A stretch of 64,000 bases of DNA from Thermococcus sp. JdFR-02 (GCA_002009975.1 MTLP01000042.1:192001-256000); one strand, 5' to 3'; shown: positions 4,914 to 24,379, numbered from the stretch's first letter. Program-made: numbers and translations. The notes: generated by a model from the sequence alone, not told the origin.

Positions 4914-5691
4914 GATTGCAATAATTGGATACGGAAAAATGGGGGAGTTCTTTGCTAATGAGTTTAGCAAAAGGTTCGAGGTTGGAATATACTCGAGGCA
5001 TTTAAAAGAGAGCGAATTTGAACTTTTCAATTCAATTGAAGAGCTTTTTGAGGGGAGCAAATATATAATGGTGGCAACTTCCCTTCAAGAAACTCCGAAA
5101 GTTTTAGAAAAGCTTGCAGAGCTTTCAAAAAACAATGAAGGAAAAGTTATTTTCGACATTTCAACCTTTAAAGGAAAGATAATTGAGATTTATAAGAAAT
5201 TTCCGAAGGAAGTTAAGGTTTGCAGCATTCATCCAATGTTTGGAAGTGGTGCAAAGAGCTTAAAGGGTAGGAAAATTATTGTAATCTCAATTGAAGGTAG
5301 AGAAAACGATGCTAAAGACGTCGTGGAGCTTTTTAAGAGCTTTGAAGCTGAGATCTTTATTAGTGACGCAGAGACTCATGACGAAATGATGAAAATCGTA
5401 ATTGGAATTCCCTATTTTATGGGATTATCCTTCTTGAGCTATATCTCAAAATTTAAAAACATTGAAAAATTTGGAGGAACTTCCTTTGAGTATCTGAGTA
5501 TCTATAGTAAGGCAATCTTGAATGACTCATCAGAGTTCATTAAAGAGGTTTTAAAATTCTCAGAAAATAGAATTGAGGAGTTCTTAGGATTTGCTAAAGG
5601 TGATGTCAACATTGAAGAGCTTAAAGAGAGATATAAAGATGAGATTAAAGAAAGCTATAGGACATTCTATAAAGTGTTAAATGAAGATTGA
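4906..5691 (+). CDS. tyrA: Prephenate dehydrogenase
   Basis: IIGYGKMG, DISTFK, HPMFG and HDEMM motifs. Confidence 0.9.
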   Translation: MDRIAIIGYGKMGEFFANEFSKRFEVGIYSRHLKESEFELFNSIEELFEGSKYIMVATSLQETPKVLEKLAELSKNNEGKVIFDISTFKGKIIEIYKKFPKEVKVCSIHPMFGSGAKSLKGRKIIVISIEGRENDAKDVVELFKSFEAEIFISDAETHDEMMKIVIGIPYFMGLSFLSYISKFKNIEKFGGTSFEYLSIYSKAILNDSSEFIKEVLKFSENRIEEFLGFAKGDVNIEELKERYKDEIKESYRTFYKVLNED

Positions 5692-5731
5692 TTGCAAAAC
5701 TCTTTTATTTGCATTTTTTAATGATAAGGTC

Positions 5732-6322
5732 ATGAGAAAAATTGCCTTTATAGACATCGAAGGAACATTAACACCTTTCGAGTGCTGGAAGGAGATAGCC
5801 ACGTTAGTTGGGAATGAGGAAATTGAAGAGCTTCTCAAAAAAGGAATAAAGGGTGAAGTTGACTGGCTTAAGAGCTTGTTAAGGAGGATTGAACTTATCA
5901 AAGGACTTGAAGAAAACGAGTTTCTTAAGCTTAGAGAAAAGCTCACAATAAGCGAAGAAGCTAAAAAAGTTATAAAAGCTCTCAAAGAGAAAGGCTTCTA
6001 CATTGTTCTGGTAAGTGGCTGTTTTGAGGAAGTTTTAAGGGAGTTTAAGCATTTTGGAGACCTGTTTATTACAAACAAAGCTATTTTTGAAAATGGAAAG
6101 TTCGTGGGCATCTCATTAAGATTTAGAGATAAAGGTGAGATTATAGAGAGAATAGCAAGGGATGGAGACTTTGTATTAGCTATAGGCGACGGAAATAACG
6201 ATGCTCCTATGTTTGAGAAAGCTAATCTAAGCATAGCAGTTGGTAGAAAAGTTCAAAGTGCTGATTACTATGCTAAAGACCTGAAAGAGCTTTTAGAAAT
6301 AATTAAAAAGCTGAGAGTTTAA
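5732..6322 (+). CDS. serB: HAD phosphatase, phosphoserine phosphatase-like
   Basis: DIEGT, VSG, K and GDGNND HAD motifs plus the SLLRR cap; start moved to ATG 5732. Confidence 0.75.
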   Translation: MRKIAFIDIEGTLTPFECWKEIATLVGNEEIEELLKKGIKGEVDWLKSLLRRIELIKGLEENEFLKLREKLTISEEAKKVIKALKEKGFYIVLVSGCFEEVLREFKHFGDLFITNKAIFENGKFVGISLRFRDKGEIIERIARDGDFVLAIGDGNNDAPMFEKANLSIAVGRKVQSADYYAKDLKELLEIIKKLRV

Positions 6323-6350
6323 GTATCAAATGGCACAAAAAGTTATATAT
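6322..6350 (+). promoter_or_regulatory. Promoter of the ACT regulator: 16-bp operator-like motif next to the TATA box
   Basis: AGTATCAAATGGCACA (6322-6337; reverse complement TGTGCCATTTGATACT), then TTATATAT (6343-6350). Confidence 0.55.
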
Positions 6351-6377
6351 TATAAGATAGTATTCTTTTTAGGTGAG

Positions 6378-7052
6378 ATGATGGCGGAAGAAAAAATTAG
6401 TGTTGCAAAGGCCGTAAAAGACATCGTTCTCTCCCGTCCAGCAATTAAGGAGTGCTTAATTTTAGATGTTATAAACTACAGCGCTTTAGCAAGGGTTATC
6501 TTAAAAGAATTAGAGAAGAAAAACATCAAAACCTCAACTGGAGCAGTAAAGATGGCTTTGATAAGAATTGGAGAAGAGCTAAAGAAAGAGAGAGCGTTCT
6601 TTGAAAGGAGAATTAAGAGTGTAGTTGCAAAAACAGTTATTGAGCTTCAATCTGATTTAACTGTAATAACAGCTGAAAAAAGAGCTGTTTTAAACAAAAT
6701 TGGACAGCTCTCTAAGGTAATGGAAAATGCAAGATTTTTCCAGCTCACTCAAGGCGTTGAAACATTCACACTCGTTCTCTCAAGTGAGGAAAAGGAAGAG
6801 GTTGTTAAGATATTGGGAAACAACATAGTCGATTTGATTGAAGAACAAACAGCTATAATTTTGATAAGTCCAGAAGAAATAATCGAAACTCCCGGATTCG
6901 TCGCATTTATTGCCTCAGCCCTTTCATCAAGTGGAATAAACATAACACAGGTAATCTCGTGTCATAAAGACACAATATTTGTTCTTGACCGTAGAGATGC
7001 TCCAAAGGCTTATCAAATACTTGAAGAGCTTATCTTGAAGATGAGGAGATAA
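6378..7052 (+). CDS. ACT-domain protein, putative amino-acid-responsive transcription regulator
   Basis: Helical N-terminus (INYSALAR...GAVKMALIR) and C-terminal ACT (TPGFVAFIASALSSSGINITQVISC). SD GGTGA at 6372 supports a start at 6378 or 6381. Confidence 0.75.
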   Translation: MMAEEKISVAKAVKDIVLSRPAIKECLILDVINYSALARVILKELEKKNIKTSTGAVKMALIRIGEELKKERAFFERRIKSVVAKTVIELQSDLTVITAEKRAVLNKIGQLSKVMENARFFQLTQGVETFTLVLSSEEKEEVVKILGNNIVDLIEEQTAIILISPEEIIETPGFVAFIASALSSSGINITQVISCHKDTIFVLDRRDAPKAYQILEELILKMRR

Positions 7053-7058
7053 TTTTTT

Positions 7059-7116
7059 TGTTACATTTGCAACATTTTTTATTAATTTTGACACATTAAT
7101 TACAAAAAATATAAAA
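7059..7116 (+). promoter_or_regulatory. argG promoter with tandem operator-like motifs
   Basis: TGTTACATTTGCAACA (7059-7074) and TATTAATTTTGACACA (7080-7095), 21 bp apart, upstream of TATA-like AATATAAA (~7108-7115). Confidence 0.6.
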
Positions 7117-7150
7117 GATGTTCTTTTTATTCCAGCTTAGGTGATTTTAC

Positions 7151-8383
7151 GTGAAGATAGTTTTAGCATATTCAGGTGGTTTGGACACATCCGTCATCTT
7201 AAAGATGATGCAGGAAAAGCTGAACGCTGAAGTAGTTACAGTTACTATAGATGTAGGGCAGAAGGACGATTTTGAAAAGATTGAAGAGAAAGCACTCAAA
7301 CTTGGTGCGGTGAAACACTACACAATAGATGCAAAGGAGGAATTTGTCGAGAAATACATATTCAAAGCAATAAAGGCAAATGCACTTTATGAAGGATCTT
7401 ATCCATTAGCTACAGCATTAGCTAGGCCTTTAATAGCTGAGAAACTTGTTGAGATAGCTAAAAAGGAGAATGCCGATGCAGTAGCTCATGGCTGCACTGG
7501 AAAAGGAAATGATCAAGTTAGGTTTGATTTAGCAGTTAAAGCTCTCTACCCAGAGATTAAGATAATTGCTCCAGTTAGGGAGCTTAACCTTACAAGGGAT
7601 TGGGAAATGGAATACGCAAAGAAAAAAGGAATACCAGTTAAGGATAAGATTTACAGCATTGATGAAAACCTTTGGGGACGCTCAATAGAAGGAGGAATCT
7701 TGGAAGATCCTTTTGAAGAACCTCCAGAGGAAATTTTTGAGTGGACTCTTTCTCCAGAAAAGACTCCAGAAAAGCCAGAATATGTTACGATAGACTTCGT
7801 AGATGGAATTCCCATAGCGTTAGATGGAAAGAAAATGAATCCCGTTGAGCTTATAGAAACTCTAAACTTCATAGCAGGGAAGCATGGGGTTGGTAGGATA
7901 GATCACATTGAAGATAGGACAGTTGGGATAAAGAGCAGAGAAGTTTATGAAGCTCCAGCGGCAATAACCTTAATAAAAGCACATAAAGACTTAGAAAAGC
8001 TAATTCTTACAAAATGGGTTCTCGAGTTTAAAGAAATCGTTGATTCAAAATGGGCATGGCTCACTTACAACGGTCTTTGGTTTGAGCCGCTTAGGGAAGC
8101 CTTAGATGCCTTCATAGATGAAGTTGAAGCAAATGTTAGTGGATCTGTTAAAGTAAAGCTCTACAAAGGAAATGTTACTGTAGTTGGAAGGTCGTCTGAG
8201 AATGCACTTTACGATACAAAGCTTGCAACCTATGAAAAGTTCAGCACTTTTGACCAAAAGCTAGCAGTTGGCTTTATTGAACTCTTTGGATTGCAGAGCG
8301 TTTTGGCTTATAGCACAAAAAACAAGCTAAAAGCTCTATATAATGCTCCAACACCCGTAAGGGCAAAGAAGGTCGTTAGTTAG
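7151..8383 (+). CDS. argG: Argininosuccinate synthase
   Basis: [33 protein letters not shown] and KSREVYEAP motifs. Confidence 0.98.
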
Positions 8384-8391
8384 GTGATGCT

Positions 8392-9753
8392 ATGTATAGG
8401 AAAAACCTGTTGGGTGATGCTGACCTTAATATCTTAACTTACACTTCCTCGATGGAAGAGGATAAAGAAATAGTTAGTGAGGTTATCGAAAGCTTAATTG
8501 CTCATGTGAAGGTTTTGACCACTCAAGGACTGATTCCAGCAGAAAAAGGACATAAAATACTAGAAGAGCTTAGAAAACTCCTTCAAAACCCATCACCATT
8601 ATTTTTCATTAATGCCGAAGATGTGCATGAAGCGATTGAGATTTATTTGAAGGAAAAGCTTGGAAAAGATGAAGGATATTTAGCCTTAGGAAAAAGCAGG
8701 AATGACCATGTTTCAGCGGCTTTGAGGCTAAAAGCAAAGAAGCTTCTAATTGAACAACTAAAAGAGTTGATAAACCTAAGGGAAATCCTTTTGGAAAAAG
8801 CAGAAGAGCATATATGCACAATAATGCCAGCTTTTACCCATTTACAGCCAGCACAACCTTCGACTTTTGCCCACTATCTTTGCTATATAGAAGAGGTCTT
8901 AGCTGATTATACAAAATCCTTGTTCTTTGCCCTCGAGATAGTTGATAACTCTCCTTTAGGAGGAGGCGCAGTTGGTGGAACGAGCGTTCCCTTAGATAGG
9001 GAAGCGCTGGCTAATGAGCTTTTTAGCAGAATAGTGCTCAATTCAATAAAGGCAACAAGTAGCAGGGATTTTCTGAGTATAGCATCATCAATGGACGTTA
9101 ATTTATCTGTATTTTTATCACGGATAGCTGAGGATATTGTCATTTTCTCAACACCTCAGTTTGACTATTTGGTTTTACCTAAAGAGCACTTGGCAACGAG
9201 TAGCATGATGCCCCAAAAGAAGAACCCAGTAACTATGGAGATAGCGAGAGCTTGGGGCTCTGAAAGCGTTGGGCATCTAACGGCTTTGTTAGGAATCCTG
9301 AAAGCTCTTCCAACTGGCTACAATTTAGATATGCAAGAAGCAAACAAGCATGCATTAGTAATCCTAAAGAAAACTCTAGAAACGCTAAAAATCTTTTCAG
9401 ACTTCTTCAAAAAGATTGAAGTCAATAAGAAAAAGTTATTGATGGATGCAAAGATTTTTCCAATTTTAGCAACTGATATAGCTGAAAAGGTCTCTCTAAA
9501 GAGCGGAAAGCCCTATAGAGAAGTTTATGGGGAGATTGCAAAGCTAATAAAAGATTCTAAGAGTGTCGAAGAACTCTATACCAAAGTTGAAGAATTTTAT
9601 GGAATCAAAGCAAACTTAGAAGAAGGAATTAAAAAGCCTGTTTTAGGTTCTCCAAATCCAGATAAGATTAAGGAATACATTAAGCTGGCAAAAAAGAGCC
9701 TCAAAGAAGATTCTTCTAAGCTAAATGGGGTGATCCCATGCAACCTTCTTTAA
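8392..9753 (+). CDS. argH: Argininosuccinate lyase
   Basis: EDVH, SRND, FTHLQPAQP and SSMMPQKKNP motifs. Confidence 0.97.
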   Translation: MYRKNLLGDADLNILTYTSSMEEDKEIVSEVIESLIAHVKVLTTQGLIPAEKGHKILEELRKLLQNPSPLFFINAEDVHEAIEIYLKEKLGKDEGYLALGKSRNDHVSAALRLKAKKLLIEQLKELINLREILLEKAEEHICTIMPAFTHLQPAQPSTFAHYLCYIEEVLADYTKSLFFALEIVDNSPLGGGAVGGTSVPLDREALANELFSRIVLNSIKATSSRDFLSIASSMDVNLSVFLSRIAEDIVIFSTPQFDYLVLPKEHLATSSMMPQKKNPVTMEIARAWGSESVGHLTALLGILKALPTGYNLDMQEANKHALVILKKTLETLKIFSDFFKKIEVNKKKLLMDAKIFPILATDIAEKVSLKSGKPYREVYGEIAKLIKDSKSVEELYTKVEEFYGIKANLEEGIKKPVLGSPNPDKIKEYIKLAKKSLKEDSSKLNGVIPCNLL

Positions 9754-10916
9754 TCGCAAAATTTAAAAATCCTGAGCGCTCCAATTGGCAAGGGCACTTG
9801 TCAAGTGAAGCATACTTAGTCTTGGAAGATGGGACTGTTTTTAAGGGCAAAGGCTTTGGAAGTGAAGGAATAAAATATGGAGAGGTTGTTTTCACAACTG
9901 GGATGGTAGGTTATCCAGAGTCGTTAACTGATCCTTCTTACAAGGGACAGATTTTAACCATGACGTATCCACTAATCGGAAACTACGGCGTTCCAAGCAA
10001 AGAAATAAAAGAAAACGGTGTTCCTATTCACTATGAATCAGATAAAATACAAGTCGAAGGATTCGTAATTTCAAAGCTCATGAAAAGCAATCATTGGGCA
10101 AGTAAAAAGAGTTTAGATGAATGGTTCAAAGAAGAGGGTATTTCTGGAATAGAAGGAATTGACACAAGGGCTTTAGTGAAAAAAATAAGGGAAAAAGGAG
10201 TCATGATGGGAGCTTTGGTTGTAGGAGATTATGAGCTCGATGAAATTATGGAGAAAGTGAAAAAGCTAAGCTACGATGAGATGAATTTCATAGATAAAGT
10301 TACTCCAAAGGAGATAATTGTTCATGAACCTGAAAACTCCAATAAGAGTATTGTTGTAGTTGATTGCGGTATCAAATATGGAATTCTAAGGGAACTCTTG
10401 AAAAGGGGATTTAAGGTAATAAGAATTCCATACCATTATGATCCAATTGATGTCTTAGAAGAGTTCAATGCAGATGGGATTTTATTTAGCAACGGTCCTG
10501 GAAATCCTGCATTGCTTAAAGAGCTGATAAAAAAAGCTCAAGAAGTTATTGAGTACAACATTCCAACGATGGGCATTTGCTTAGGAAGTCAAATACTCTC
10601 TTTAGCAGATGGGGGAGAAATTTACAAGCTTAAGTATGGACATAGGGGAATTAACAAACCAGTTAAAGACTTAAAAAGTGGAAAAGCCTTTGTGACAACT
10701 CAGAATCACGGATATGCTGTGAAAGCTCAAAGTTTAAACGAGTTTAAAGTTTGGATGATCAATATAGATGACAAAAGCGTTGAGGGAATTTACCATCCAA
10801 ACAAACCAATAATTGCTACTCAATTTCACCCTGAAGCGTCTCCTGGTCCCTTAGACTCAACATGGATTTTTGATGTTTTTTCAAAAATGGTTAAAGGTGA
10901 GGCTCATGGTTTCTAA
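9738..10916 (+). CDS. carA: Carbamoyl-phosphate synthase small subunit
   Basis: [29 protein letters not shown] and QFHPE motifs. Confidence 0.97.
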
Positions 10917-13900
10917 GGTCCTTGTTCTGGGCTCTGGAGCAATAAAAATTGGTGAAGCTGCTGAATTTGATTACAGTGGAAGTCAAGCTTTAAAGGCTTT
11001 AAAAGAAGAAGGCATAGAAACGATTTTAATTAATCCAAATGTCGCAACGATTCAAACGAGCCATGAGATGGCAGACAAAGTTTACCTCCTCCCTCTTGAT
11101 ATCAAATTTGTGGAGGAAGTTATAAAGAAAGAGAAACCTGATGGAATTTTGTTAGGCTTTGGAGGTCAAAGTGCTCTATCTTTGGGTGTAGCTTTACATG
11201 ACTCTGGAATTTTAGAAAAGTACAATATTAAAGTTCTTGGAACGCCTATAGAGGGAATAAAAAAAGCTCTGGATAGGGAGAAGTTTAGGGAAACAATGAT
11301 CAAAAATAATCTCCCAATACCTCCAAGTAAAGCCGCTAAAAGCGTTGAAGAAGCTCTAAAAGTGGCTCAGGAGATAAGGTTCCCAGTCATGGTTAGGGTT
11401 AGCTTTAACTTAGGTGGAAGGGGATCCTTTGTTGCTTGGAATGAAGAGGAGTTTAAGGGATATATAGTCAGGGCTTTTGCACAAAGTGAGATTGGTGAGG
11501 TTTTGGTAGAGAAGTACCTAAAAGGATGGAAAGAGATAGAGTTTGAGGTTGTTAGGGATAAAGATGGAAATGCTGTTGCTGTAGCGTGCTTAGAGAACTT
11601 TGATCCAATGGGAGTTCATACAGGAGATTCCATAGTTGTTGCTCCTTCTCAAACTTTAACAAATAGGGAATATCAACTCTTGAGGAGTGCAGCCATAGAA
11701 GTAGCAGAAGCTATAGATCTTATTGGAGAATGTAATGTTCAATTAGCCTTAGATCCCAAATCAGAGGAGTTCTACATAATTGAGACAAATCCAAGGATGA
11801 GCCGCTCATCTGCTTTAGCAAGCAAAGTTACAGGCTATCCCCTAGCATACATAGCGGCAAAGTTAGCATTAGGCTATACCCTGGATGAGCTCTTAAATGG
11901 GGTAACTGGAGTTACAACCGCTTTATTTGAGCCGAGCTTGGATTACGTTGTTGTTAAAATGCCAAGGTGGGATTTAGAAAAGTTTGAGAACGCGAAGAGG
12001 AAAATAAACACCGAGATGAAGAGCATTGGAGAGGTCATGGCAATAGGAAGGAACCTTCATGAGGCTTTTCAAAAAGCTATTAGGATGGTAGGAATTGGAG
12101 ATGAGCTTATAGGAAAGTACTATGAGAGCGAAGAGTCGTTGGAAAAAGTTATGGAGAGAATCAAAAATTACGAACCTTACATGCCTATGCATATTGCAAA
12201 AGCCCTGAAATTGGGAGCAAGTGTTGATGAGATTCACGAAATTACTGGGATAGACAAGTTTTACCTCTACATAATTGAAGATCTCGTTAAAATTGCAGAA
12301 GCCCTGAGAAATCCAGATGAAGAAACAATAAGAGAAGCCAAAAAGCTTGGATTTAGTGAGGAGCAGATAAAGGGTCTATCTAAAGATAGCATTAAAGAAT
12401 CAATCCCATTTGTCAAGCAAATAGATACATTGGCTGGGGAAGTTCCAGCAAGGACGAATTATCTATACATGACCTATGATGCACAAGAAAACGATATCCC
12501 CTATATAGAAAAGCCAAAGGTTCTGATTTTAGGAGCAGGTGTCTTTAGGATTGGGGTTAGTGTAGAGTTTGACTGGGCTGTCGTGAACTTTGCAAATGCT
12601 GCAAAAAAGAGGGGTTATGAAGTTATAGTTTTGAACTACAACCCTGAAACAGTCTCAACGGATTGGGATATTAACGATAAGCTTTATTTTGAGGAGATAA
12701 CTCTTGAGAGGGTTTTAGATGTTTACAATTTTGAAAATCCAGATGGTGTTATAGCCTTTGCGGGAGGACAGCTTGCAAATTCCTTAGCTAAAAAACTTGA
12801 GCAAAAGGGAGTTAAGCTTTTGGGAACGAGGGGAACGAGTGTAGATATAGCTGAAAACAGGGCTAAGTTCTCAAAGCTCTTAGAAAAGCTCAACATAAAG
12901 CAACCACCCTGGATCGAAGCTAAGAGCATTGGAGAAGTCTTAGCTTTTGCTGACGAAGTGGGTTATCCTTTAATGATAAGACCGAGCTATGTTTTGAGCG
13001 GAACTGCTATGAAAGTTGCATACAATGAGAAGGAATTAAAAGAGTATCTCTCCTTAGCAACAAAAGTCTCCCAAGAACACCCTGTTGTGGTTTCAAAGTT
13101 CTTAGATGCAATGGAAGCAGAGATAGATGCTGTCTCAGATGGAAAGAGGGTAGTTGGAGTTACATTGGAGCACATAGAAAAAGCGGGAGTTCATAGTGGA
13201 GATGCTACAATGGTTACTCCCTACCGCTATCTAAAAGAAAAGCATGTAAAAAAGATGCACAAAATAGCTTTAGAGCTTGCGTTGGCTTTAGGAATTAGGG
13301 GACCCTTTAACATACAATTCTTGGTTAATGATGATGTCTACGTTCTTGAGCTAAACTTGAGGACTAGTCGTTCTATGCCCTTCTCAAGCAAATCAAGGGG
13401 AGTTAACTTAATGGAGCTTTCAGCTCAAGCAGTCTTTGATGGAAAACTTTCCTTAGGAAGTGATTATAAATATTATGAGATTCCAGCAAAGGCTTTCGCT
13501 GTTAAGAGTCCTCAATTCTCTTGGTCTCAGCTTCAAAATGCTTATCCTTTCTTAGGACCAGAAATGCGCTCTACTGGGGAAGTTGCAAGCTTAGGATTTG
13601 AATTTGAGGATGCCCTATTAAAGAGCTGGCTCTCTGTAAAACCAAACAAAATGCCAAGGTCAAACATCTTAGTCTATGGCTATGACAAAGACGTACCAAC
13701 ATTATTGGAAACTGTAAAATTCCTTGAAAGCTTGGGATACAATGTCTTCACCTTAGAAGACAGCTTAAGCTATGGAAATGCTTTGAGCAAAGAAAAAGCT
13801 GTAGAACTGATGAAACTGGGCAAGATTGATCTAGTTATAACCTCTGGCTATGCAAAGGAGAAGGATTACTTTATTAGGAGGACAGCAGTTGATTTAAACG

Positions 13901-14052
13901 TTCCGATAGTCCTAGATGCAAATCTAGGTTACGAGCTTTCAAAAGCCTTTGCTTGGGCAAAAAAGAACTGTTTTGAGGTTAAAGAACTTTCTGAGTATTA
14001 CGGTCCAAAATTGCAAAGAGTCGTTAGCGAACCTTTAGAAGAGCTTGTTTGA
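10906..14052 (+). CDS. carB: Carbamoyl-phosphate synthase large subunit
   Basis: [17 protein letters not shown], duplicated ATP-grasp halves, NPRMSRSS, C-terminal MGS-like domain; SD GGTGAGG before ATG 10906. Confidence 0.97.
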
Positions 14053-14248
14053 ATGACTCTTTGCATTTATCAAATTTTTCTTGCATCGTGAAAGCCCAGA
14101 TTAGAATGTACAAAAATTTTTTCGAAATAATTGCATGAAAACCGAAATATTATTTGCATTTAATAAAATTCAAGAAAAGCTTTTCGAAAAATAGCCAAAT
14201 TTTCCGAAAGATTTATATACTATTCCATAAATCTTAGATTGTCAAATC

Positions 14249-15361
14249 ATGGGGGTGGTATTATTAAGAGCCATACAACTTCTAGATTCAACATTGAGAG
14301 AAGGAGAACAATCACCAGGGGTTAACTTTAGTCCAGAGCAGAGATTAGGGATAGCGGTAGCTTTGGATGATTTTGGCGTTGATTTTATAGAAGTAGGACA
14401 CCCAGCAGTAAGTGAAGATGTCTTAGAAGGAATAAGACTGATTTCAGAGCAAGGTTTAAGGGCAAACCTCTTAGCACACTCAAGAGCATTAAGAAGGGAC
14501 ATCGATTTAATTTTGGATTTAAATGTGGATTGGGTTGGCATCTTCTTCTGCTTCTCAAATGCATGTCTCCAAAGGAGGTTTAGCATAACCCTTGAAAGAG
14601 CTTTGGAAAGAGTTGAAAATGCCATACTATACGCCAAGGATCATGGATTGAAAGTGCGCTTTACTCCTGAAGACACCACAAGAACAGAATGGGAAAACCT
14701 TGAAAGAGCTTTAAACCTTGCAAGAGAGCTTAAAGTCGATAGAGTAAGCATAGCAGACACAACTGGATCAGCCCATCCATTATATTTCTACGAGCTAACT
14801 AAAAGAGTTGTAAGCTTTGGCATTCCAACCAATGTGCACTGTCACAATGATTTGGGCTTGGCTTTAGCAAACGCAATAATGGGAATTGAAGCTGGAGCAA
14901 CATTAGTGGATGCAACTATAAATGGCATAGGAGAAAGAGTTGGAATAGTTGATCTAGCCCAAATTTCAACTCTCTTAACTTATCATTATGGGATTAGAAA
15001 ATATAAATTAGAGAACCTCTATGGACTGAGCAAACTGATAGAACAGATAACGGGAATAAAAACCCAAAGACACTACCCAATAGTTGGAGAAAATGCATTT
15101 GTTCACAAAGCTGGCTTACACGTTTCAGCCGTGATAAAAGATCCAAGCTTTTACGAATTTTTACCAGCAGAAGTTTTTGGACGAGAGAGGACAATCTATT
15201 TAGACAAATATGCAGGAAGGGATTCAATACGCTTTTACTTAGAAAGAATGGGAATTAGGGATGACAGAATCGCTGAGAGATTACTTAGCATTGTAAAAAG
15301 CTCTCAAGAAGTTTTTACACCAGAGAGGCTTCTTGAAGAGGCAAGGAGGTTCTTAAGATGA
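14249..15361 (+). CDS. Homocitrate synthase (DRE-TIM family)
   Basis: [21 protein letters not shown] and HKAGLH motifs; heads the alpha-aminoadipate lysine cluster. Confidence 0.9.
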
Positions 15362-16512
15362 CGATTATTGAAGAAATTCTAAAGGCAAAAACAGGAGAGG
15401 CAGTAATCAGAAATGTTGATTTAATTTATGCCCACGATGGAACAATGCCCCTAATCATAGAAGCATTTAGAAGGGTTTTTACACGAGTGAAGGATCCAGA
15501 GAGGGTTTTTATATTCTTTGATCATGTTTATCCAGCACCAACAGTTAAAGTGGCAAATCTCCAAAGAGAGATTAGAGAATTTGCAAGAGAGCAGGGAATT
15601 AAAATCTTTGAGGGTTATGGAATATCACACCAAGTTGTTCCAGAAGAAGGACTTTTGGATGGAGCAAAAATAATAGTTGGAGCTGATTCTCATACACCAA
15701 CCTTAGGAGCATTTGGGGTCTTTGCTGTAGGAATGGGTGCAACCGATACCGCTATAGCGTTAGGCTTAGGTAAAACTTGGCTTAAAGTCCCAGAAAGCGT
15801 TAGAGTGAATCTTGAAGGAAAGCTAAGCAAAAATGTAATGGCAATGGATTTAATGCTCCACTTAATTAACTTACTGAAAGACTTTGACATGAATTATAAA
15901 GCCTTAGAGTTCTTTGGAAACCTTGATTTCCCAATTGATGAAAAAATGACGATAGCAAATTTCAGCGTTGAGACAAATGCAAAAACTGCTCTTTTAGACA
16001 ATGGAATCTTTGAAGGCGATGGAAATTATCTGAGAGAAATCACAATAGAGCTTGGTGAAGTTGAGCCCCTTGTTGCTTTACCTCATCATCCAAGCAACGT
16101 TGAAAGAGCTGAAGGAGTTACTCAAAAAATTGACCAAGTCTTCATAGGTTCATGCACAAATGGGAGAATTGAACACTTTAGACGAGTGGCGGAGATTCTT
16201 GAAGGCGAAAAAGTTAGCGTTAGAACGTTTATTGGACCTGCATCAAGGAGAATTTACTTCAAAATGATTGAGGAAGGCATAGTTCAAATACTAAGTGAAG
16301 CTGGTGCAGTTATTTTGCCTCCAGGATGTGGACCTTGCTTAGGCAGACATATGGGAGTAGCTGGGGATGGAGAAGTAATTCTAAGCACCACCAATAGAAA
16401 CTTCAAAGGAAGAATGGGTTCTCCAAACGCTGAAATTTACCTTGCCAGCCCTGTTACTGCAGCGGTGAGTGCAATTTATGGAGAGATAACAAATCCGGAG
16501 GATGTGCTATGA
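15358..16512 (+). CDS. lysT: Homoaconitase large subunit
   Basis: [19 protein letters not shown] and NRNFKGRMG motifs; lys context. Confidence 0.88.
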
Positions 16513-16988
16513 GGGTGTGGAAATTTGGGGATAGCATTTCAACTGATGCAATAACCCCTGGGAGATATAATTTAACAAAAGATCCGCAAGAGCTTGCAAA
16601 AATAGCATTCATAGAGGTTAGACCAGAGTTCTCAAGGGAAGTAAAGAGGAGAGACGTTATTGTAGGTGGAAAAAACTTTGGGATAGGCTCTTCAAGGGAA
16701 TCAGCTGCTTTAGCATTAAAAGCCGCTGGGATTAGTGGAATAATAGCGAAATCCTTTGGGAGAATATTCTACCGCAACTGTATCAACTTGGGTATTCCCC
16801 TCCTAACTGGCGACACGGATTGGCTGAATGATGGTGATGAGATAGAAGTAGACTGGCAAAGTGGAATAGTTAGAAGAGGAAAAGAGATAAGACAATTCGA
16901 GCCTTTGGAAGAATTTCTCTTTGAGATAGTCAAAAATGGCGGAATAATAGAGTATCTACAGAGGAGGGGCGATTTATGTATAGAGTAG
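16509..16988 (+). CDS. lysU: Homoaconitase small subunit
   Basis: [17 protein letters not shown] and SFGRIFYRN motifs. Confidence 0.88.
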
Positions 16989-18025
16989 CAGTGATTAAGG
17001 GAGATGGCATTGGAGTTGAAGTTACAAATGCTGCAATGGAAGTCATGAGAGCTGTAACGGACAAAATAGATTTCGTTGAGTTTGAGGGAGGAATTGAGAT
17101 ATTCAAGAAGTTTGGTGTTCCAATAAAAGAGGAGGATTTGGAAGAGATAAAGAAGATGGATGCAGTTTTATTTGGAGCAACGTCAACACCTTTTAATGTT
17201 CCAAACTACAAAAGCTTGATCCTAACTTTGAGAAAAGAGCTTAACCTTTACGCTAATTTAAGAATTATTCCAGACCTTTGGAGAGATAGGGAAATCTACA
17301 TAGTAAGGGAAAATAGTGAAGGGCTATACTCTGGGGAGTATGAGGTTGATAATAGCAGAGTTGTTGATTTCAGGGTAATAACGAGGGAAGGAGCAGAGAA
17401 AATAGCAAGATTTGCAATAGAATTAGCAAAAGACAGGAACTTTAAAGAAATTACTTTTGTTCACAAAGCAAACGTTTTGAGAGGTGATAGATTTTTCAGA
17501 AAAATCGTTTTGAGCTTGGCAGAAAGAGAGGGGATTAAAGTTAATGAGAAAATTGTTGATTCCTTTACTATAGAACTTGTCAGAAATCCTTGGCAGCACA
17601 AAATAATACTAAGCGAGAATCTTTTTGGTGATATCCTCTCAGATTTAGCTTCAATACATGCAAAGAGCATTGGGGTTATTCCATCAGGGAACTACGGAGA
17701 GGAAATAGCTTTATTTGAGCCTATACACGGGAGTGCGCCAGACATAGCTGGGAAAGGAATAGCAAATCCAATTGGAGCTATTTTGAGCGGTGCTATGCTC
17801 TTAGATTATTTGGGTTTAGATGGTTGGGTAATTTGGAATGCTGTCAAAAATTATGTGAAAAAAGGCAATTTAACACCTGATTTGGGGGGAAATGCAATGA
17901 CTGTGGATGTTGTAAATGGAATAATCTCAGAAATTGATGATCAAGAGATTGATCCCATAGAATGGGATGAGCTCTGGGTTGATGAGATAAGAATCAACAC
18001 CCTTCCAACTTTATTCATGAAATAA
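16976..18025 (+). CDS. Homoisocitrate dehydrogenase (beta-decarboxylating dehydrogenase family)
   Basis: [25 protein letters not shown] and [12 protein letters not shown] motifs; lys context. Confidence 0.9.
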
Positions 18026-18086
18026 TGTTATATTTGGCACAAAATTTAGAAATTTAAAATTAAATGTTACAAAAAAGATTTAAATC
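18026..18086 (+). promoter_or_regulatory. Internal lysW promoter with operator-like motif
   Basis: TGTTATATTTGGCACA (18026-18041), a half-site AAATGTTACA ending at 18071, and TATA-like TTTAAAT (~18079-18085). Confidence 0.55.
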
Positions 18087-18133
18087 TTCCAAATGTCATG
18101 CGGATTGGAAACATAAAGAATGGAGGTGGAAAG

Positions 18134-18295
18134 ATGGTTGAATGCCCAGTTTGTGGAGTTGAAATAGAAATCGATAGTGTAGAGATACATGAGATAATTG
18201 AGTGCCCTGTCTGCAGTTCAGAGCTCGAAGTGGTTAGCTTAAACCCAATAGTCCTTGAAGAGCTCCCTGAGGTGGAAGAAGACTGGGGAGAGTGA
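18134..18295 (+). CDS. lysW: Amino-group carrier protein LysW
   Basis: Two CPVC zinc knuckles and C-terminal EEDWGE; SD GGAGGTG before ATG 18134. Confidence 0.97.
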   Translation: MVECPVCGVEIEIDSVEIHEIIECPVCSSELEVVSLNPIVLEELPEVEEDWGE

Positions 18296-18296
18296 C

Positions 18297-18325
18297 GTTC
18301 TCAATATATTGAGAACTTTATTTTT
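18297..18325 (+). terminator. Perfect 20-bp palindrome plus T-rich tract after lysW
   Basis: GTTCTCAATATATTGAGAAC (18297-18316) followed by TTTATTTTT. Confidence 0.55.
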
Positions 18326-18342
18326 ACCTTGGAGGTCAAACA

Positions 18343-19164
18343 ATGAAAATAGGCATAACATACACAATAATGCGCAAAGAGGAGATAATGCTCAGAGATA
18401 GGGCAAAGGAGTTTGGGGAAGTGGTTATGCTCCATGATAGTGAAACAATCTTTCCAGAAAACTTTGACTTAGACATCGTGATAATAAGAAACGTTAGCCA
18501 CTTCAAAGCCCTATATATGGCAAAGCTCTTTGAAAGCTATGGAATTCCAACGGTTAATCCATTCAATATAATCCTTGAAGCAGGCGATAAGCTTTTCGCA
18601 ACGCTAAAACTTAGCAAGAAAGTTCCAGTGCCAAGATGGAGCGCTGCATTTGATAAGAAAAGTGCAATAAAAGCAATGGAAAGAATTGGCTATCCCGTGG
18701 TTATGAAGCCTGTCTTTGGAAGCTGGGGAAGAATGGTTAGCAAAATAAACGATTTGGATGCAGCTGAAGGAATTGTGGAGCATAGACAATGGATGGGAAA
18801 TCCTCTTTACAAGGTTTACTACATCCAAGAATACGTTGAAAAACCTGGCAGAGATATTAGAAGCCACGTTATTGGAGGAGAATTTGTAACTGCTATTTAT
18901 AGGTATTCCGACCATTGGGTAACCAATACTGCAAGGGGAGGAAGGGCAAAACCTTGCTATGATGAAGAAGTCAAAGAAATTTCAGTTAAGGCATGGGAAG
19001 CTTTTGGCGAGGGGGCTTTGGCAATAGACATATTTGAGAGCGATAGAGGATTGCTCGTTAATGAAGTTAACCCTGCTATGGAGTTCAAAAACGTAGTAAG
19101 GGTTACCGGTGTTGATGTGGCTAAAAAAATCGTTGAATATGCTATTGAGGTGGCTAAGAAATGA
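18343..19164 (+). CDS. lysX: LysW ligase (LysX/ArgX ATP-grasp)
   Basis: KPVFGSWGR, QEYVEKPGRDIR, WVTNTARG and NEVN..MEF motifs. Confidence 0.95.
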   Translation: MKIGITYTIMRKEEIMLRDRAKEFGEVVMLHDSETIFPENFDLDIVIIRNVSHFKALYMAKLFESYGIPTVNPFNIILEAGDKLFATLKLSKKVPVPRWSAAFDKKSAIKAMERIGYPVVMKPVFGSWGRMVSKINDLDAAEGIVEHRQWMGNPLYKVYYIQEYVEKPGRDIRSHVIGGEFVTAIYRYSDHWVTNTARGGRAKPCYDEEVKEISVKAWEAFGEGALAIDIFESDRGLLVNEVNPAMEFKNVVRVTGVDVAKKIVEYAIEVAKK

Positions 19165-20153
19165 TAAAAGCAGCTGTTGTTGGTGCAAGCGGCTACATTG
19201 GAGGAGAGTTAGTTAGACTCTTAGCAATGCATCCCGAAGTTGAGATAAGTGCGGTAACATCAAGGCGTTACAATGGGAAGAAAATCCACAAAGTTCATCC
19301 AAATTTAAGGGGACTAAACCTTAAGTTTACCAATAACTACAACTTTGATGCGGATGTAGTATTTTTAGCCGTTCCACACGGAACTTCGATGAAGATAATT
19401 GACGAATACATGGGAAGTGCTAAGATAATTGACCTAAGTGCAGACTTTAGAGTAAGCTTAAACCTCTATGAAGAGTACTATGGAGAACATTTAAAACCAG
19501 AGCTTATAGATGAGTTCGTTTACGGCTTGCCAGAGATTCATAGAGAAGAAATCAAAAAAGCCGAGCTTATAGCAAACCCTGGCTGCAATGCAACAGCCGT
19601 AATTTTAGCATTGTATCCATTTAAAGGGGAAATTAGTGAGGCGATAGTGGATTTAAAAGTTAGCTCAAGTGCTGGAGGAAGAAGGGAAAACGTAGCAAGC
19701 ATTCACCCCGAAAGGAGCAATGTTGTTAGAATTTACAAATCATTCCATCATAGGCACGAAGCAGAAGTAAAGCAAGAAACCAAAGTTAATGCCCAATTTA
19801 CTGTTCATTCCGTTGATTTAGTAAGGGGGCTTTTAGCAACGATCTACTTTAAGATGGAGACCAATGAAAAAGAGCTTTATAAAAAATATTTCCTCTATTT
19901 AAAAGAGCCATTTGTAAGGATAGTTAAGGAAAAAGGAGGAATGCAGAGGTTACCCGATCCAAAATATGTAATAGGAAGTAACTTCGTTGATATTGGTTTC
20001 ACTTATGATGAGAAAAATCAAAGAGTGATTCTCTTTTCAGCATTGGACAATTTGATTAAAGGCGGTGCTGGACAAGCGGTGCAAAACATGAACATAGCCT
20101 TTGGATTAGACGAAACTCTCGGCTTAAATTATTTACCAGTTTATCCAATTTAG
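19161..20153 (+). CDS. lysY: LysW-aminoadipate/glutamate phosphate reductase (ArgC-like)
   Basis: GASGYIG, DLSADFR, ANPGC and DNLIKGGAGQAVQ motifs. Confidence 0.95.
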   Translation: MIKAAVVGASGYIGGELVRLLAMHPEVEISAVTSRRYNGKKIHKVHPNLRGLNLKFTNNYNFDADVVFLAVPHGTSMKIIDEYMGSAKIIDLSADFRVSLNLYEEYYGEHLKPELIDEFVYGLPEIHREEIKKAELIANPGCNATAVILALYPFKGEISEAIVDLKVSSSAGGRRENVASIHPERSNVVRIYKSFHHRHEAEVKQETKVNAQFTVHSVDLVRGLLATIYFKMETNEKELYKKYFLYLKEPFVRIVKEKGGMQRLPDPKYVIGSNFVDIGFTYDEKNQRVILFSALDNLIKGGAGQAVQNMNIAFGLDETLGLNYLPVYPI

Positions 20154-20162
20154 GTGGGAAAG

Positions 20163-20885
20163 ATGAGAATCCTTAAAATCGGAGGAAGCGTTTTAGATAA
20201 ACTCGAGGAATTTGAACTTAGAGCAGATTTAATTGTTCACGGTGGCTCGGATTATGTTGATGCTCTATGTGAAAGGCTTGGAATTGGGGTTAAGAAACTA
20301 ACAAGCCCTTCTGGAGTAGAGTTTAGATACACTCCAAAGGAAGTGCTTGAAGTTTATTTAATGGCTGTAATGAAAGCCAACAAAGATATTGTTGCTTATC
20401 TTCAAAGTAAAGGGATCAATGCTATAGGCTTGAGCGGTCTCGACTTTGGAGTTGTAAAGGCTAAGAGGAAGAGGATAATTAAAGCTGTGATAAAAGGCAA
20501 AAGAGTTGTGATTAGGGACGATTACTCTGGAAAAATAGAGAGCGTTGATACTGATATTCTAATTAAGCTAATGGATCTTGGAGTTCCCGTTATAGCTCCA
20601 ATAGCTATGAGTGAAGCCTTTGAGCCCTTAAACGTTGATGGGGATAAGCTTGCAAAGGAGATAGCTCTAAACCTGAAAGCTGATGAGTTGACATTCCTAT
20701 CAGATACTGCTTTTTTGGTAAATGGAGGAGTTGTGGATAAAATAAAGGCTGATGAGCTTGAAGAGTTCCTTCCTTTTGCAAGAGGCGGAATGAAGAGGAA
20801 ACTGCTAATGGCAAGGACTGCACTTGAAGGTGGCGTCAAAAAGATTATCATCCAAGGCTTAAACGGCAGGACGGTGATTGAATGA
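20163..20885 (+). CDS. lysZ: LysW-aminoadipate/glutamate kinase (ArgB-like)
   Basis: KIGGS, VHGG, LNVDGD and GGMKRK motifs. Confidence 0.93.
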
Positions 20886-21973
20886 GGGAGATGAATCTTT
20901 ACAAGAAAAGACTAAAGCTCGTTAGAGGAAAAGGCGTTTATGTTTGGGATGAAAATGGGAACAAATACCTTGATGCCATAGCTGGAATTGGCGTGGCTAT
21001 ATTGGGGCACTCAAATGAAGAGTTAGCAAGTGCAATAAATGAGCAAATGGAAAAGCTTGTAGTTGCTGGTCCTATGTTCCATCATGAGGAGAAAGATGAA
21101 GCCTTAGAGGAACTTTCCAAATTCCTCAGCTTTGAATATGCTTATTTTGGAAATTCCGGGACTGAGGCTGTTGAAGCAGCTTTAAAATTTGCCCGCCTTT
21201 ATACCGGCAAAAAAGAGATAATAGCGATGACAAAAGCCTTTCATGGGAGAACCTTTGGTTCTCTAAGCGCAACTTGGAAGAAAAAATATAGGGAAGGTTT
21301 TGAGCCTTTAGTTCCTGGATTTAAGCATATTCCATTCAATAACATTGAGGTTGCAAAAGAGGCTATAACCAAAGAAACTGCCGCTGTAATAGTTGAGCCA
21401 ATTCAAGGAGAAGGTGGAATAATCCCTGCAAAAGAGGAGTTTATCAAAACTTTAAGGGATTTAACCCAAGATAACGGGGCTTTGCTAATAGTTGATGAGG
21501 TTCAAAGCGCCTTTAGAAGTGGAAAGTTTCTGGCAATAGAGCACTACAAAGTTCAGCCCGATATAGTTACAATGGGCAAAGGGTTAGCAAATGGAATTCC
21601 AATTGGACTAACGCTAACCAACTTCGACATCCCGAGAGGAAAGCACGGTTCAACTTTTGGAGGAAATCCCCTTGCTTGCAAAGCTATGGCAACGACATTG
21701 AAGATCTTAAGGAGAGAAAAGCTCATAGAAAAAGCTAAAGAAAAGGGCATAAGTATAGAAGGGGACAAAGTAATAATGACGAGAGGTAAAGGACTAATGC
21801 TTGGAGTTCTTTTGAAAGAGAATGCTGGGAAATATGTAGAAAAGCTTCAAGAGAGAGGATTATTGGTAAATACAGCTGGGAATAGAGTGATTAGGCTTTT
21901 ACCTCCACTGATAATTACAAAGGAGCAGATGCTTTGGGTCAAGGAAACTATTGAAGGTGTCCTTAATGGTTAG
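20882..21973 (+). CDS. lysJ: LysW-lysine/ornithine aminotransferase (class III)
   Basis: [26 protein letters not shown] and HGSTFGGNP motifs. Confidence 0.93.
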
Positions 21974-22961
21974 CGAAGAGGAAAAAATTGAGTTTTTGAA
22001 AGAGTTGGTTAACATTTACAGTCCAAGCGGTAAAGAAGAAAAAGTAGCCAAGTTTTTAGTTGAAAGTTTTGAAAGCTTTGGAGCTAAGGCATACATTGAT
22101 AAAGTGGGAAATGTTATAGCAGAAAAGAAAGGAAAAGGGAATAAAATCCTTTTAGCCGGGCATATGGACACTGTTGAAGGAATAATTCCCGTTAGGATCG
22201 AAAATAACTATTTATGGGGAAGAGGTAGCGTTGATGCTAAAGGTCCTTTAGCGGCTCTCTTTTTTGCATTCATTGAAAGTAAGGCAAATTTAATTTTTGC
22301 ATCACTTGTCGATGAAGAAGGATTTTCAAAAGGTGCTAAAAATTTGAATGTTCCAAAGCCAGATTTTATAATAATTGGAGAGCCAAGCGGCTTTGATGGA
22401 GTTACAATCGCTTATAAGGGAAGTTTAACGATGAAGTTTGTGGAAAAAGTTGAGAAGTTTCATGGGAGTTTAAACTCAAAAGGCGCTGCAGAAAAGCTAA
22501 TTGAAAAATGGCTCAAGATAAGCAGAAATTTTGGTGAAGGCTTTGATAAGCCAAGTGGCAGGATTTTGAGATTTGAAGCTTATGAGAGAGATTTTGACTT
22601 TTACGGGGAGATGATAGTTAATATTAGAACACCTATTGGCTATGAACCACCGATTGAAGGAGAAATTTTAGATTTTGTTCCCGCTTATGAAGTATCTATA
22701 AAAAGCCCATTGGTTAGGGCTTTTATTAGGGCTATAAGAAAAGGTGGTGCAAAGCCAAGGCTTAAAAAGAAGAGTGGAACAGCGGATATGAACATCTTGG
22801 CTCCTAAATTTGGGGTCGATGCAGTAGCTTATGGTCCAGGCGATTCCAAGTTAGACCATACTCCCTATGAACGCTTAAACTTGGAAGAATATTTGAAAGC
22901 AATAGAAGTGTTAAAAGCGGCTTTGGAGGAAATTAAAATCTTACAACCCCCTAAAGATTGA
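21966..22961 (+). CDS. lysK: LysW-lysine/ornithine carboxypeptidase (M20)
   Basis: [22 protein letters not shown] and [10 protein letters not shown] motifs. Confidence 0.93.
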
Positions 22962-23059
22962 TATAAAGCACTTAATTAGCTTTACAGAGGTCGTTAAGGA
23001 TATTTATTTTTTATGAATGAGAAAGCGCTGAGAATTTACTGATAAACTTGAAGAAAGAT

Positions 23060-23112
23060 ATGTGATTATAAACCACAAGATTTTTATAAAAGTTTGTGGA
23101 TAATAATCACAT
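23060..23112 (+). promoter_or_regulatory. 19-bp inverted repeat bracketing the TATA box of the ATPase gene
   Basis: ATGTGATTATAAACCACAA (23060-23078) and TTGTGGATAATAATCACAT (23094-23112), 2 mismatches, with TTTTTATAAAA between them. Confidence 0.65.
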
Positions 23113-24379
23113 GCTTAGTGTTGAAGAACTAAAAAGGATTATCATAACACAGCGGGAAGAGATGGATGAATTCTTAAACAGAGAAAGACTTATTGAAAGA
23201 GAAGTAGATAGGAGAAGATTGCTAAAGTTCCTTCAATATCCAAATATTTTAGCAATTCTTGGAGTTAGAAGATCCGGAAAATCCGTGTTAAGCTGGCTTT
23301 TAATGAGAGGCAAGAAATTTGGATACATAAACTTCTTTGATGAAAGGTTGCTTGGCTTTTCACCAGAAGATTTTGAAAAGCTTGTGCAGGCATTCCACGA
23401 GCTCTACGGTGACCTAGATTATTTTGTGTTTGATGAAATACAAAGTGTGCAAGGTTGGGAGAGATTCCTCTCAAGGGTGAGAACTTCAAAGAGAGTTATA
23501 ATCACTGGCAGCAGTTCAAATCTTCTCTCTGGCGAGCTTTCAACAGTCCTAACAGGTAGATATGTAAGCTTTGTGCTCTATCCCTTTAGCTTTAAAGAAT
23601 TTTTGGAATTTAAAGGAATAAAGTTGGAAAAAAACTGGATGTACTCCACAAAAGAGACTGCTAAGGTCAAGAAAGCGCTGGAAGAATACATCAAGCTCGG
23701 TGGTTTTCCGGAAGCATTGAAGTTTGGTAGGATATATCTTCAAACCATATACAGGGATATAGTGGAAAAGGATGTGCTGTTTAGATATAAAATAAGGGAT
23801 ATTCAAGCACTGAGGGAATTAGCCAAATATCTCATCTCAAACTTTTCTAAAGAGATAACTTACGGCAAACTGAAGAATTTAATCAACATCAAGGACGTGC
23901 ATACGGTGAAAAATTATGTTGAATACTTGGAGAGAGCATATTTAATTTTTCAAGTTAAAAGATTCTCGTTTAAACTAAAAAGTCAGATGCTATCTCCAAG
24001 AAAAGTCTATGCTGTTGATACTGGGTTGATAAATGCCGTTTCGTTTAAATTCAGCGAAAACATTGGTAGATTGATGGAAAACCTTGTTTTTTTGGAACTT
24101 TTGAGAAGGAGAAGCTACAAATTCTCAGACTATGAAATTTATTACTGGAAAGACGCTAAAGGAGAGGTAGATTTCGTCGTTAAGAGCGAAAACAAAGTTA
24201 CACAGTTAATACAAGTTACATATGAACTGAACAAGGAGAACTTTGAGAGAGAAGTTGCATCTCTGCTGAAGGCTTCAAAAGAGTTAAAGTGCAAGGAACT
24301 GCTACTCATAACATGGGGTCAGGAAGATACCATAAAAGAGGGAGTTAAAATAATCCCCCTATGGAAGTGGTTGCTTTAG
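23111..24379 (+). CDS. AAA+ ATPase with DUF4143-type C-terminus (AAA_14 family)
   Basis: Walker A GVRRSGKS, Walker B FDEIQ, TGSS, GGFP, KVYAVDTGL, ENLVF and EVDF...IQV motifs. Confidence 0.88.
   Translation: MLSVEELKRIIITQREEMDEFLNRERLIEREVDRRRLLKFLQYPNILAILGVRRSGKSVLSWLLMRGKKFGYINFFDERLLGFSPEDFEKLVQAFHELYGDLDYFVFDEIQSVQGWERFLSRVRTSKRVIITGSSSNLLSGELSTVLTGRYVSFVLYPFSFKEFLEFKGIKLEKNWMYSTKETAKVKKALEEYIKLGGFPEALKFGRIYLQTIYRDIVEKDVLFRYKIRDIQALRELAKYLISNFSKEITYGKLKNLINIKDVHTVKNYVEYLERAYLIFQVKRFSFKLKSQMLSPRKVYAVDTGLINAVSFKFSENIGRLMENLVFLELLRRRSYKFSDYEIYYWKDAKGEVDFVVKSENKVTQLIQVTYELNKENFEREVASLLKASKELKCKELLLITWGQEDTIKEGVKIIPLWKWLL

Follow-up and report, generated by a model that had tools for sequence, protein, structure and literature searches.

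To our knowledge, most archaea have no ArgR, and the searchable literature describes no regulator of argG, argH or carAB for Thermococcales or for archaea generally. The closest described systems are the archaeal activators LysM of Sulfolobus solfataricus (an Lrp/AsnC protein), Ptr2 and Ss-LrpB, for which the available part of PMC2995911 gives a site for a dimer a few bp upstream of the recognition element (BRE) of transcription factor B (TFB) and, two or three helical turns farther upstream, auxiliary sites. According to the same part of that source, LysM is an amino-acid-responsive regulator of the lysW operon with an ACT-like alpha/beta sensor domain, lysine is proposed to inactivate its activation, and the effectors of the Pyrococcus Lrp-type feast/famine regulator FL11 include Lys and Arg, with lysJKYZ as one of its targets. 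The genes of the LysW carrier-protein pathway reportedly have a double role in Thermococcus, in the synthesis of lysine and of ornithine (PMC8305020, available in part and citing primary work). Here we analyze an arginine and lysine gene cluster in a stretch of 64,000 nt, the window, from Thermococcus sp. JdFR-02 (family Thermococcaceae; genome of 2.36 Mb, 38% G+C, 99.99% complete). An earlier note on this DNA had proposed that the argGH-carAB and lysWXYZJK operons share an operator-like motif and are controlled by an ACT-domain protein encoded next to argG (hereafter the ACT protein, and its gene the ACT gene). We find that the motif is real and not a product of chance, and consider it likely, from comparative sequence evidence, that the ACT protein represents a new family of amino-acid-responsive transcription factors controlling argGH-carAB, lysWXYZJK and its own gene through the palindrome TGTTnnAwwTnnAACA.

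In its proposed role, as a regulator of the lysW operon that responds to an amino acid and binds just upstream of the BRE with a further site three turns away, the ACT protein resembles LysM. It differs from LysM in having neither HTH_AsnC nor RAM and carrying a tandem aspartokinase-type ACT instead, in its 16-bp TGTT..AACA operator, and in its proposed core target across archaea, which is argG and not lysW. The proposed arginine-sensing control of arg and car genes, the paired palindromic operators and the possible autoregulation recall ArgR/AhrC; the two proteins show no homology and differ in domain make-up, and the sites here are placed upstream of an archaeal BRE/TATA, with no overlap of a bacterial -35/-10 region. 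The C-terminal 150 residues share fold and Pfam family with the beta domain of aspartokinase and CASTOR-type ACT_7 proteins, and CASTOR1 senses arginine. Unlike aspartokinase, the ACT protein lacks a kinase domain, is fused to a basic four-helix domain, and its gene neighbors promoters rather than a kinase. FL11 comes from the same family of organisms as the genome studied here; it belongs to another protein family, and its 13-bp binding consensus, of the TGAAA..TTTCA type, is unlike the palindrome found here. The kind of system, a one-component amino-acid-sensing regulator, is known; what would be new is the putative DNA-binding domain, so far unclassified, together with the operator and a regulon closing a recognized gap.

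A Paired Palindrome Precedes argG and lysW

The loci of relatives revealed the true form of the motif, a 16-bp palindrome TGTTnnAwwTnnAACA (site 1), and a second, degenerate copy 30 bp downstream of it (site 2), the GTTACA end of which abuts the BRE/TATA. The pair is present in this genome only before argG (7059/7089) and lysW (18026/18056). The features concerned are listed below with their scores by the position weight matrix (PWM) of site 1 where given; operator sites of the pairs carry no strand.

7059..7074, no strand: operator site 1 of the argG promoter, palindrome TGTTACATTTGCAACA; PWM 22.9
7089..7104, no strand: putative operator site 2 of the argG promoter, degenerate, at site 1 +30 bp; its 3' end TTACA adjoins the BRE
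7105..7117, plus strand: BRE/TATA of the argG operon, by consensus
7151..14052, plus strand: argG, argH, carA and carB, proposed target operon (Pfam); gene spacing tight or overlapping
18026..18041, no strand: operator site 1 of the lysW promoter, TGTTATATTTGGCACA; PWM 14.4; directly after the homoisocitrate dehydrogenase stop codon
18056..18071, no strand: putative operator site 2 of the lysW promoter, at site 1 +30 bp; ends in GTTACA and adjoins the BRE
18072..18085, plus strand: BRE/TATA of the lysW operon, by consensus
18134..22961, plus strand: lysW, lysX, lysY, lysZ, lysJ and lysK, proposed target operon (Pfam/NCBIfam); carrier-protein pathway to lysine and ornithine
6322..6337, minus strand: single weak operator-like copy in the ACT gene promoter, one mismatch; PWM 6.7; directly adjoins the BRE/TATA
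6338..6352, plus strand: A-rich BRE and TATA of the ACT gene, a consensus reading only; conserved in close relatives
6378..7052, plus strand: ACT gene, candidate regulator of 224 aa, DUF7523 plus double ACT (Pfam)

Both site 1 sequences are exact matches to TGTNNNATTTGNNACA, the pattern read from the window in the earlier note, and the inverted copy that it saw beside the TATA of the ACT gene is present on the minus strand with one mismatch. The half-site noticed before lysW, which ends at 18071, belongs to the second copy there and forms its 3' end. A weaker second copy before argG does exist as claimed; its position and spacing had been misjudged, as 7080-7095 (+21, two helical turns) is off register by 9 bp and overlaps the left half of the true site 2, which lies three turns from site 1.

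The window contains five matches to TGTNNNATTTGNNACA at no more than one mismatch, in comparison with 1.54 expected, and five or more were reached in 2 of 100 shuffles. Besides the three copies described, the remaining two matches (40244 and 42777) fall inside open reading frames (ORFs). The whole genome has five exact matches, of which only those before argG and lysW are outside crude ORF calls. We built a symmetric PWM from 17 distinct site 1 sequences of relatives, leaving out the genome studied, and by this matrix the argG site 1 ranks at the top of 2.36 million genome positions. The single-site matrix alone is not specific: most high scores are in genes, and of the 27 highest just 4 fall outside crude ORF calls. 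When the search was made composite, requiring site 1 and then TACA plus an A-rich tract at +29 to 31, argG (22.9) and lysW (14.4) stood out in the genome and the next candidate scored 9.8.

Scanning the genome at PWM ≥10 gave no further promoter-like place with convincing context. No site was found upstream of argF (C8:89242-90150; best PWM -6.5), which the earlier note had named as an example for a genome scan, or upstream of the NhaC-type transporter of this genome (C2:29937-31337; best PWM -1.3). The homocitrate synthase promoter likewise has no site (best PWM -2.8 in 14041-14262), which agrees with the motif having been reported as missing there and with the idea that argGH-carAB and lysWXYZJK are controlled separately from the upper lysine pathway. 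The spacer before homocitrate synthase (14053-14248) contains three TTTGCAT-like words, near 14059, 14127 and 14152, which may be part of a separate, lysine-specific control.

The second-best matrix score in the genome (22.3) belongs to a perfect operator-type palindrome at G000:C2:46362-46377, about 100 bp upstream of cdc6/orc1 and beside ORB-like origin repeats. As it has no second copy and 93 of the 97 family genomes lack it, among them that of the closest relative (three others match at one mismatch), we set it aside as probably unrelated to the regulon.

The Operator Pair Is Conserved in Thermococcaceae and Tracks the ACT Gene

We searched for the ACT gene in 97 genomes of the family, fetched the 30 best loci and read the DNA following the ACT stop codon. 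In 24 of the 30 loci we observed the same layout of site 1, 14 bp, site 2 ending in GTTACA and then immediately an A-rich BRE and TATA, with a start-to-start distance between the sites of 30 bp (31 in two loci), and this arrangement was kept down to 50% identity of the ACT protein. The genes downstream of the pair are three: argG, carA (L017-L019) and an NhaC-type transporter (L021-L030; PF03553). Among relatives, 20 of 30 LysX loci show the same pair no more than 200 nt upstream of lysW; those without it are mostly second LysX copies in longer operons, or contig ends. The motif had been expected to recur in orthologous promoters, and it is conserved at those of argG, carA and lysW. The exceptions to the layout are five loci with an aminotransferase-like gene after the ACT gene and the degenerate L016 and L020, one of which is still included in the 24 as a variant.

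The aminotransferase-like gene (MFSQRILD...) follows the ACT gene in L009 and L012-L015 (genomes G092, G093, G096, G090 and G047). Its own upstream spacer has no operator; argG comes next in L013 and L015, the two loci reaching that far, and the operator remains directly before argG.

For counting across genomes we used a strict pattern, TGTTNNANNTNNAACA-N25-27-TACRRAA, and as a control the same pattern reversed. The strict pattern has 40 matches in 29 of the 97 genomes, the reversed control none in 97. The ACT gene is present in 32 genomes (ACT+), including one 33-residue remnant and one gene with a stop codon, and the strict pattern was found in 27 of these 32 vs. 2 of the 65 genomes without the gene (ACT-), the two being G044 (475-bp contig) and G067 (88% complete). 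We fetched the loci of 30 of the 40 matches, one of which held a second match, and all 31 matches thus checked precede argG, lysW or an NhaC-type transporter. For at least 20 strict matches the distance to the ACT gene exceeds 1 kb, and the argG operators of G005 and G010 lie over 300 kb from it. The enzyme gene argG occurs in 21 of the 97 genomes; 16 of the 21 have the strict pattern before it and the other five a one-step variant (G006, G054, G069, G085 and G076).

Eleven ACT+ genomes without argG and without LysX have one strict match each, situated between the ACT gene and the transporter. Because these genomes keep the ACT gene together with the operator, the motif tracks the ACT protein and not the biosynthetic enzymes, and the assignment of an ACT-domain regulator to the arg and lysW genes, originally made from a single window, gains comparative support. 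The ACT gene is present in 20 of the 21 genomes with argG and, profile search included, in none of the four that have LysX and lack argG.

One locus, L068 (G029:C1:1502948-1503603), appears to be decaying, with an in-frame stop in the ACT gene and an adjacent transporter ORF that ends after 162 residues; its operator pair is intact.

In 10 of the 15 closest loci the promoter of the ACT gene, where an autoregulatory copy had been suspected, carries an operator copy at its BRE/TATA. This copy has the same position before AAAAGTTATATAT in L001-L005, L007, L008 and L015, and variants are present in L006 and L009. The DNA upstream of the copy differs among these loci, and since the copy itself is kept in position, the pattern suggests, less firmly, that the ACT gene is autoregulated. 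The start of the gene is the ATG at 6378, preceded by the ribosome-binding site AGGTGAG; the ATG at 6330 was rejected as a start and falls within the operator.

The ACT Protein Combines a Basic Helical Domain with a Double ACT Domain

The nearest proteins to the ACT protein, at 95-96% identity, are those of Thermococcus sp. MV5 and T. atlanticus, and its Pyrococcus furiosus orthologue is AAL81836.1. Databases name it "ACT domain-containing", "DUF7523 family" or "hypothetical", and UniRef in some entries "CASTOR ACT domain-containing protein". In the openly searchable literature, with subscription journals and supplements outside it, we found nothing on the ACT protein, DUF7523, the P. furiosus orthologue or the motif, and the available parts of PMC8305020, PMC6335949 and a GapMind preprint of 2026 hold nothing on the protein or the motif.

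The sequence matches PF13840 (ACT_7) at 39.6 bits and DUF7523 (PF24367) at 34.0 bits, both with a cut-off of 27, the latter match covering residues 8-73 on profile positions 1-59 of 158; a DNA-level search with PF24367 reached 22.1 bits, below the cut-off. AlphaFold2 models the protein with a pLDDT of 93.7 from an alignment of 35 sequences. In the model, residues 87-223 form two beta-alpha-beta-beta-alpha-beta ACT units, and the C-terminal 150 residues match the regulatory domains of aspartokinases (Foldseek E 9e-9, 3tvi and 3c1m; TM 0.64-0.74 on target). NCBIfam aspartokinase models align to residues 36-218, and a PDB sequence search gave only a marginal aspartokinase match (E 0.028). Residues 1-85 are modeled as four helices (9-19, 21-28, 34-47 and 54-84), and folding this part alone again gave a four-helix model (pLDDT 91). 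The N-terminal 85 aa have a pI of 9.9, in comparison with 4.8 for the rest, and are the most conserved part of the protein, with the invariant stretches NYSALAR and KMALIR where helices 3 and 4 begin. DUF7523 is matched by each of the 16 N-terminal domains tested, one of them with a stray match to PF22482 (E 0.031), and the domain has no match in the ESM Atlas.

Pfam assigns neither the Lrp/AsnC family (HTH_AsnC, RAM) nor the ArgR family to the ACT protein. The ArgR model TIGR01529 found nothing anywhere in the genome at E up to 0.1, whereas 9 of 14 control genomes were positive, extending to the genome the earlier statement that no ArgR is encoded in the window. A homodimer prediction scored 0.33 against a mark of 0.42, which counts neither for nor against a dimer.

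The Operator Is Found beyond the Family

Scanning one genome per species, we identified 313 loci encoding a relative of the ACT protein and examined the best 80. These include Thermococci, DHVE2, Thermoplasmata, Desulfurococcales, Acidilobaceae and Sulfolobales as well as Methanomethylicia, Methanodesulfokora (Korarchaeia-like), Culexarchaeia, Bathyarchaeia, Odinarchaeota and others. In 52 of the 80, an arg, lys or transport gene starts within 400 bp downstream on the same strand, being argG in 44 cases, carA in 5, homocitrate synthase-lysW in 2 and NhaC in 1. Of these 52 spacers, 24 reach a score of at least 14 with the Thermococcaceae matrix, as do 2 of the remaining 28. The excess is about 50-fold, with 26 sites in the 11.2 kb of spacers vs. 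22 in the remaining 459 kb, and in 18 of the 26 cases a GTWACR element follows the site after 15-30 nt, beside a TATA-like tract.

Pairs of ACT paralogues occur on one DHVE2 contig (L109, L122) and in one Thermoplasmata metagenome-assembled genome (L111, L124). In both pairs one paralogue stands before argG-argH-carA and the other before homocitrate synthase-lysW-lysX-lysY, which suggests separate arginine and lysine regulators in these genomes.

Proposed Regulation and Alternative Explanations

In the mechanism that we propose, the basic four-helix N-terminal domain (DUF7523) would read the DNA and the C-terminal aspartokinase-type ACT pair would bind an amino acid. The protein would bind the 16-bp site as a dimer, since the site is a palindrome. 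The strong copy lies at about -75 and the degenerate copy three helical turns downstream, its GTTACA end touching the BRE; as the copies are three turns apart and on one face of the double helix, they would be occupied cooperatively, the strong distal copy probably helping the weak one next to the BRE. The targets in this genome would be argGH-carAB, lysWXYZJK and, through its single weak copy, the ACT gene itself, and would not include argF or the homocitrate synthase genes. Because the operator pair fronts arg and lys/orn genes wherever the ACT protein is present, the protein is probably the hitherto unknown arginine regulator of archaea. The ACT gene goes with argG and not with the LysW cluster, which favors arginine over lysine, and arginine is the most likely signal on this genomic pattern.

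The sign of regulation can be read in two ways. The layout fits the rule for archaeal activators in the available part of PMC2995911, with site 2 adjoining the BRE and site 1 30-31 bp upstream of it. Since both sites lie upstream of the BRE, as for Ptr2, LysM and Ss-LrpB, we lean slightly, by analogy, toward an activator that comes off the DNA once its amino acid is abundant. A co-repressed repressor in the manner of ArgR, with the proximal copy hindering TFB, is a serious possibility too, since site 2 may extend with its ACA end into the first positions of the BRE.

Several observations weigh against the proposed role of the ACT protein or reduce the force of the counts. The co-occurrence is partly trivial, as many of the sites physically adjoin the ACT gene; the strict pattern was composed after the ACT+ loci had been viewed; and the genomes are kin, so that their counts overstate independence. 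What the counts do tell comes from the ACT- genomes without a match, the reversed control without one and the sites remote from the gene. Both G024 and G082 are complete genomes that lack the ACT gene and argG, and they have an operator-like variant before lysW (L051/L098 and L053/L099; PWM 9.8 and 3.2) that hardly differs from the one in the ACT+ genome G069. G004 and G007 have no such variant. Loss or transfer of the cluster may have left the variant as a relic, or another factor may use it. The own-promoter copy is weak, 461 of 2.36 million positions scoring as high, and it is missing from more distant orthologues. Beyond the family, 28 of the 52 spacers score below 14, some of them with visible half-sites. 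Site 2 scores about -4 to -5 by the site 1 matrix, and its candidacy as a second binding site comes from register and conservation alone. As for the N-terminal domain, a Foldseek search of the PDB gave no match at E ≤0.001, and a permissive Pfam search (E up to 10) gave DUF7523 only and no known DNA-binding family. Its best VIA-align score, Z 7.0, is in the noise range for helical domains, as are those with DNA-bound helical domains (BEN, homeodomain, ArgR and Fur; Z 4.3-6.2). DNA binding by the ACT protein is accordingly something we infer from charge, conservation and genomic context, and the dimer and its cooperativity, the ligand and the sign of regulation are of the same kind.

A first alternative is an arrangement in which the palindrome is bound by another factor, for instance an Lrp/FFRP-type protein such as FL11 or LysM, and the ACT protein is a sensor that does not bind DNA, or else serves an enzyme of the arginine pathway (ArgG, carbamoyl-phosphate synthetase or the LysZ kinase) as its allosteric subunit. 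We regard it as improbable. It would suit the homology of the C-terminal part to the regulatory subunit of aspartokinase, the N-terminal domain without a recognized DNA-binding fold and the operator-like sequences kept by G024 and G082 without an ACT gene, and the available part of PMC2995911 lists lysJKYZ as a target of FL11 and lysWXJK as a target of LysM. An enzyme subunit is difficult to reconcile with the eleven genomes lacking argG and LysX, which retain the ACT gene and the operator before the transporter and thus offer no arginine enzyme as a partner. Lrp-type proteins are common in Thermococcaceae, and 63 of the 65 ACT- genomes are without any composite site. Basic and more conserved than any other part of the protein, the N-terminal domain goes in step with an operator conserved across phyla, and a copy of the operator is found at the protein's own promoter; all of this argues against the arrangement.

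Two further explanations leave no role for a DNA-binding protein. Site 1 could be the transcript-end signal of the upstream gene, a small hairpin flanked by T-runs: it starts 7 nt after the ACT stop codon and directly after the stop at 18025, and T-runs do flank it. We consider this very unlikely, as site 1 is found 46-178 nt after the stop codon in relatives (L003-L010) and also before argG without an ACT gene upstream (G005, G010). The stem would have 4 outer pairs with a 2-nt loop, positions 5 and 12 do not covary (A/C, T/T and C/A occur), the outer TGTT/AACA letters are conserved across phyla, and a fixed register to site 2 and the BRE/TATA is maintained. Chance similarity in AT-rich intergenic DNA might be suspected in a genome of 38% G+C, in which the single-site matrix scores many places within genes. 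It deserves next to no credence and is already refuted by the reversed control (0 of 97 genomes vs. 29 of 97 for the real pattern), the roughly 50-fold excess in cross-phylum spacers and the top genome-wide rank from a matrix excluding this genome.

We consider it somewhat more probable than not that the ACT protein is the archaeal counterpart of ArgR: an ancient family combining an unrecognized DNA-binding fold with an aspartokinase/CASTOR-type ACT sensor, whose operator, in the form of TGTT-N8-AACA pairs beside the BRE, and position at argG predate the major phyla, Asgard included, and whose paralogues were recruited to lysine genes and amino-acid transport. Candidate protein, operator and regulon are named here together, and as orthologues are present in genetically tractable hyperthermophiles, archaeal arginine sensing becomes directly testable. 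DUF7523 would gain a likely function, a new DNA-binding fold is indicated, and the proposal would account for the LysW genes being controlled apart from the lysine-only upper pathway.

Neighboring Genes and Transcript Contigs

The gene order of the window was assigned with Pfam and NCBIfam, and the lysW start at 18134 was placed by alignment to relatives. Two further features flank or separate the proposed targets:

5681-6322: HAD phosphatase gene, upstream of the ACT gene (Pfam/NCBIfam)
14249-18025: homocitrate synthase, homoaconitase large and small subunits and homoisocitrate dehydrogenase, the upper lysine genes (Pfam/NCBIfam)

A gene for an AAA_14 plus DUF4143 ATPase (23096-24379), for which NCBIfam has no name, follows lysK on the same strand. 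Four RNA-library contigs from one marine-sediment study (X1-X4) cover 5600-23000, spacers included, at about 90-99% identity; they reveal no starts, strands or levels and so have no bearing on the promoters. A close relative is present in that marine-sediment sample, and the genes of the arg/lys cluster are possibly expressed there.

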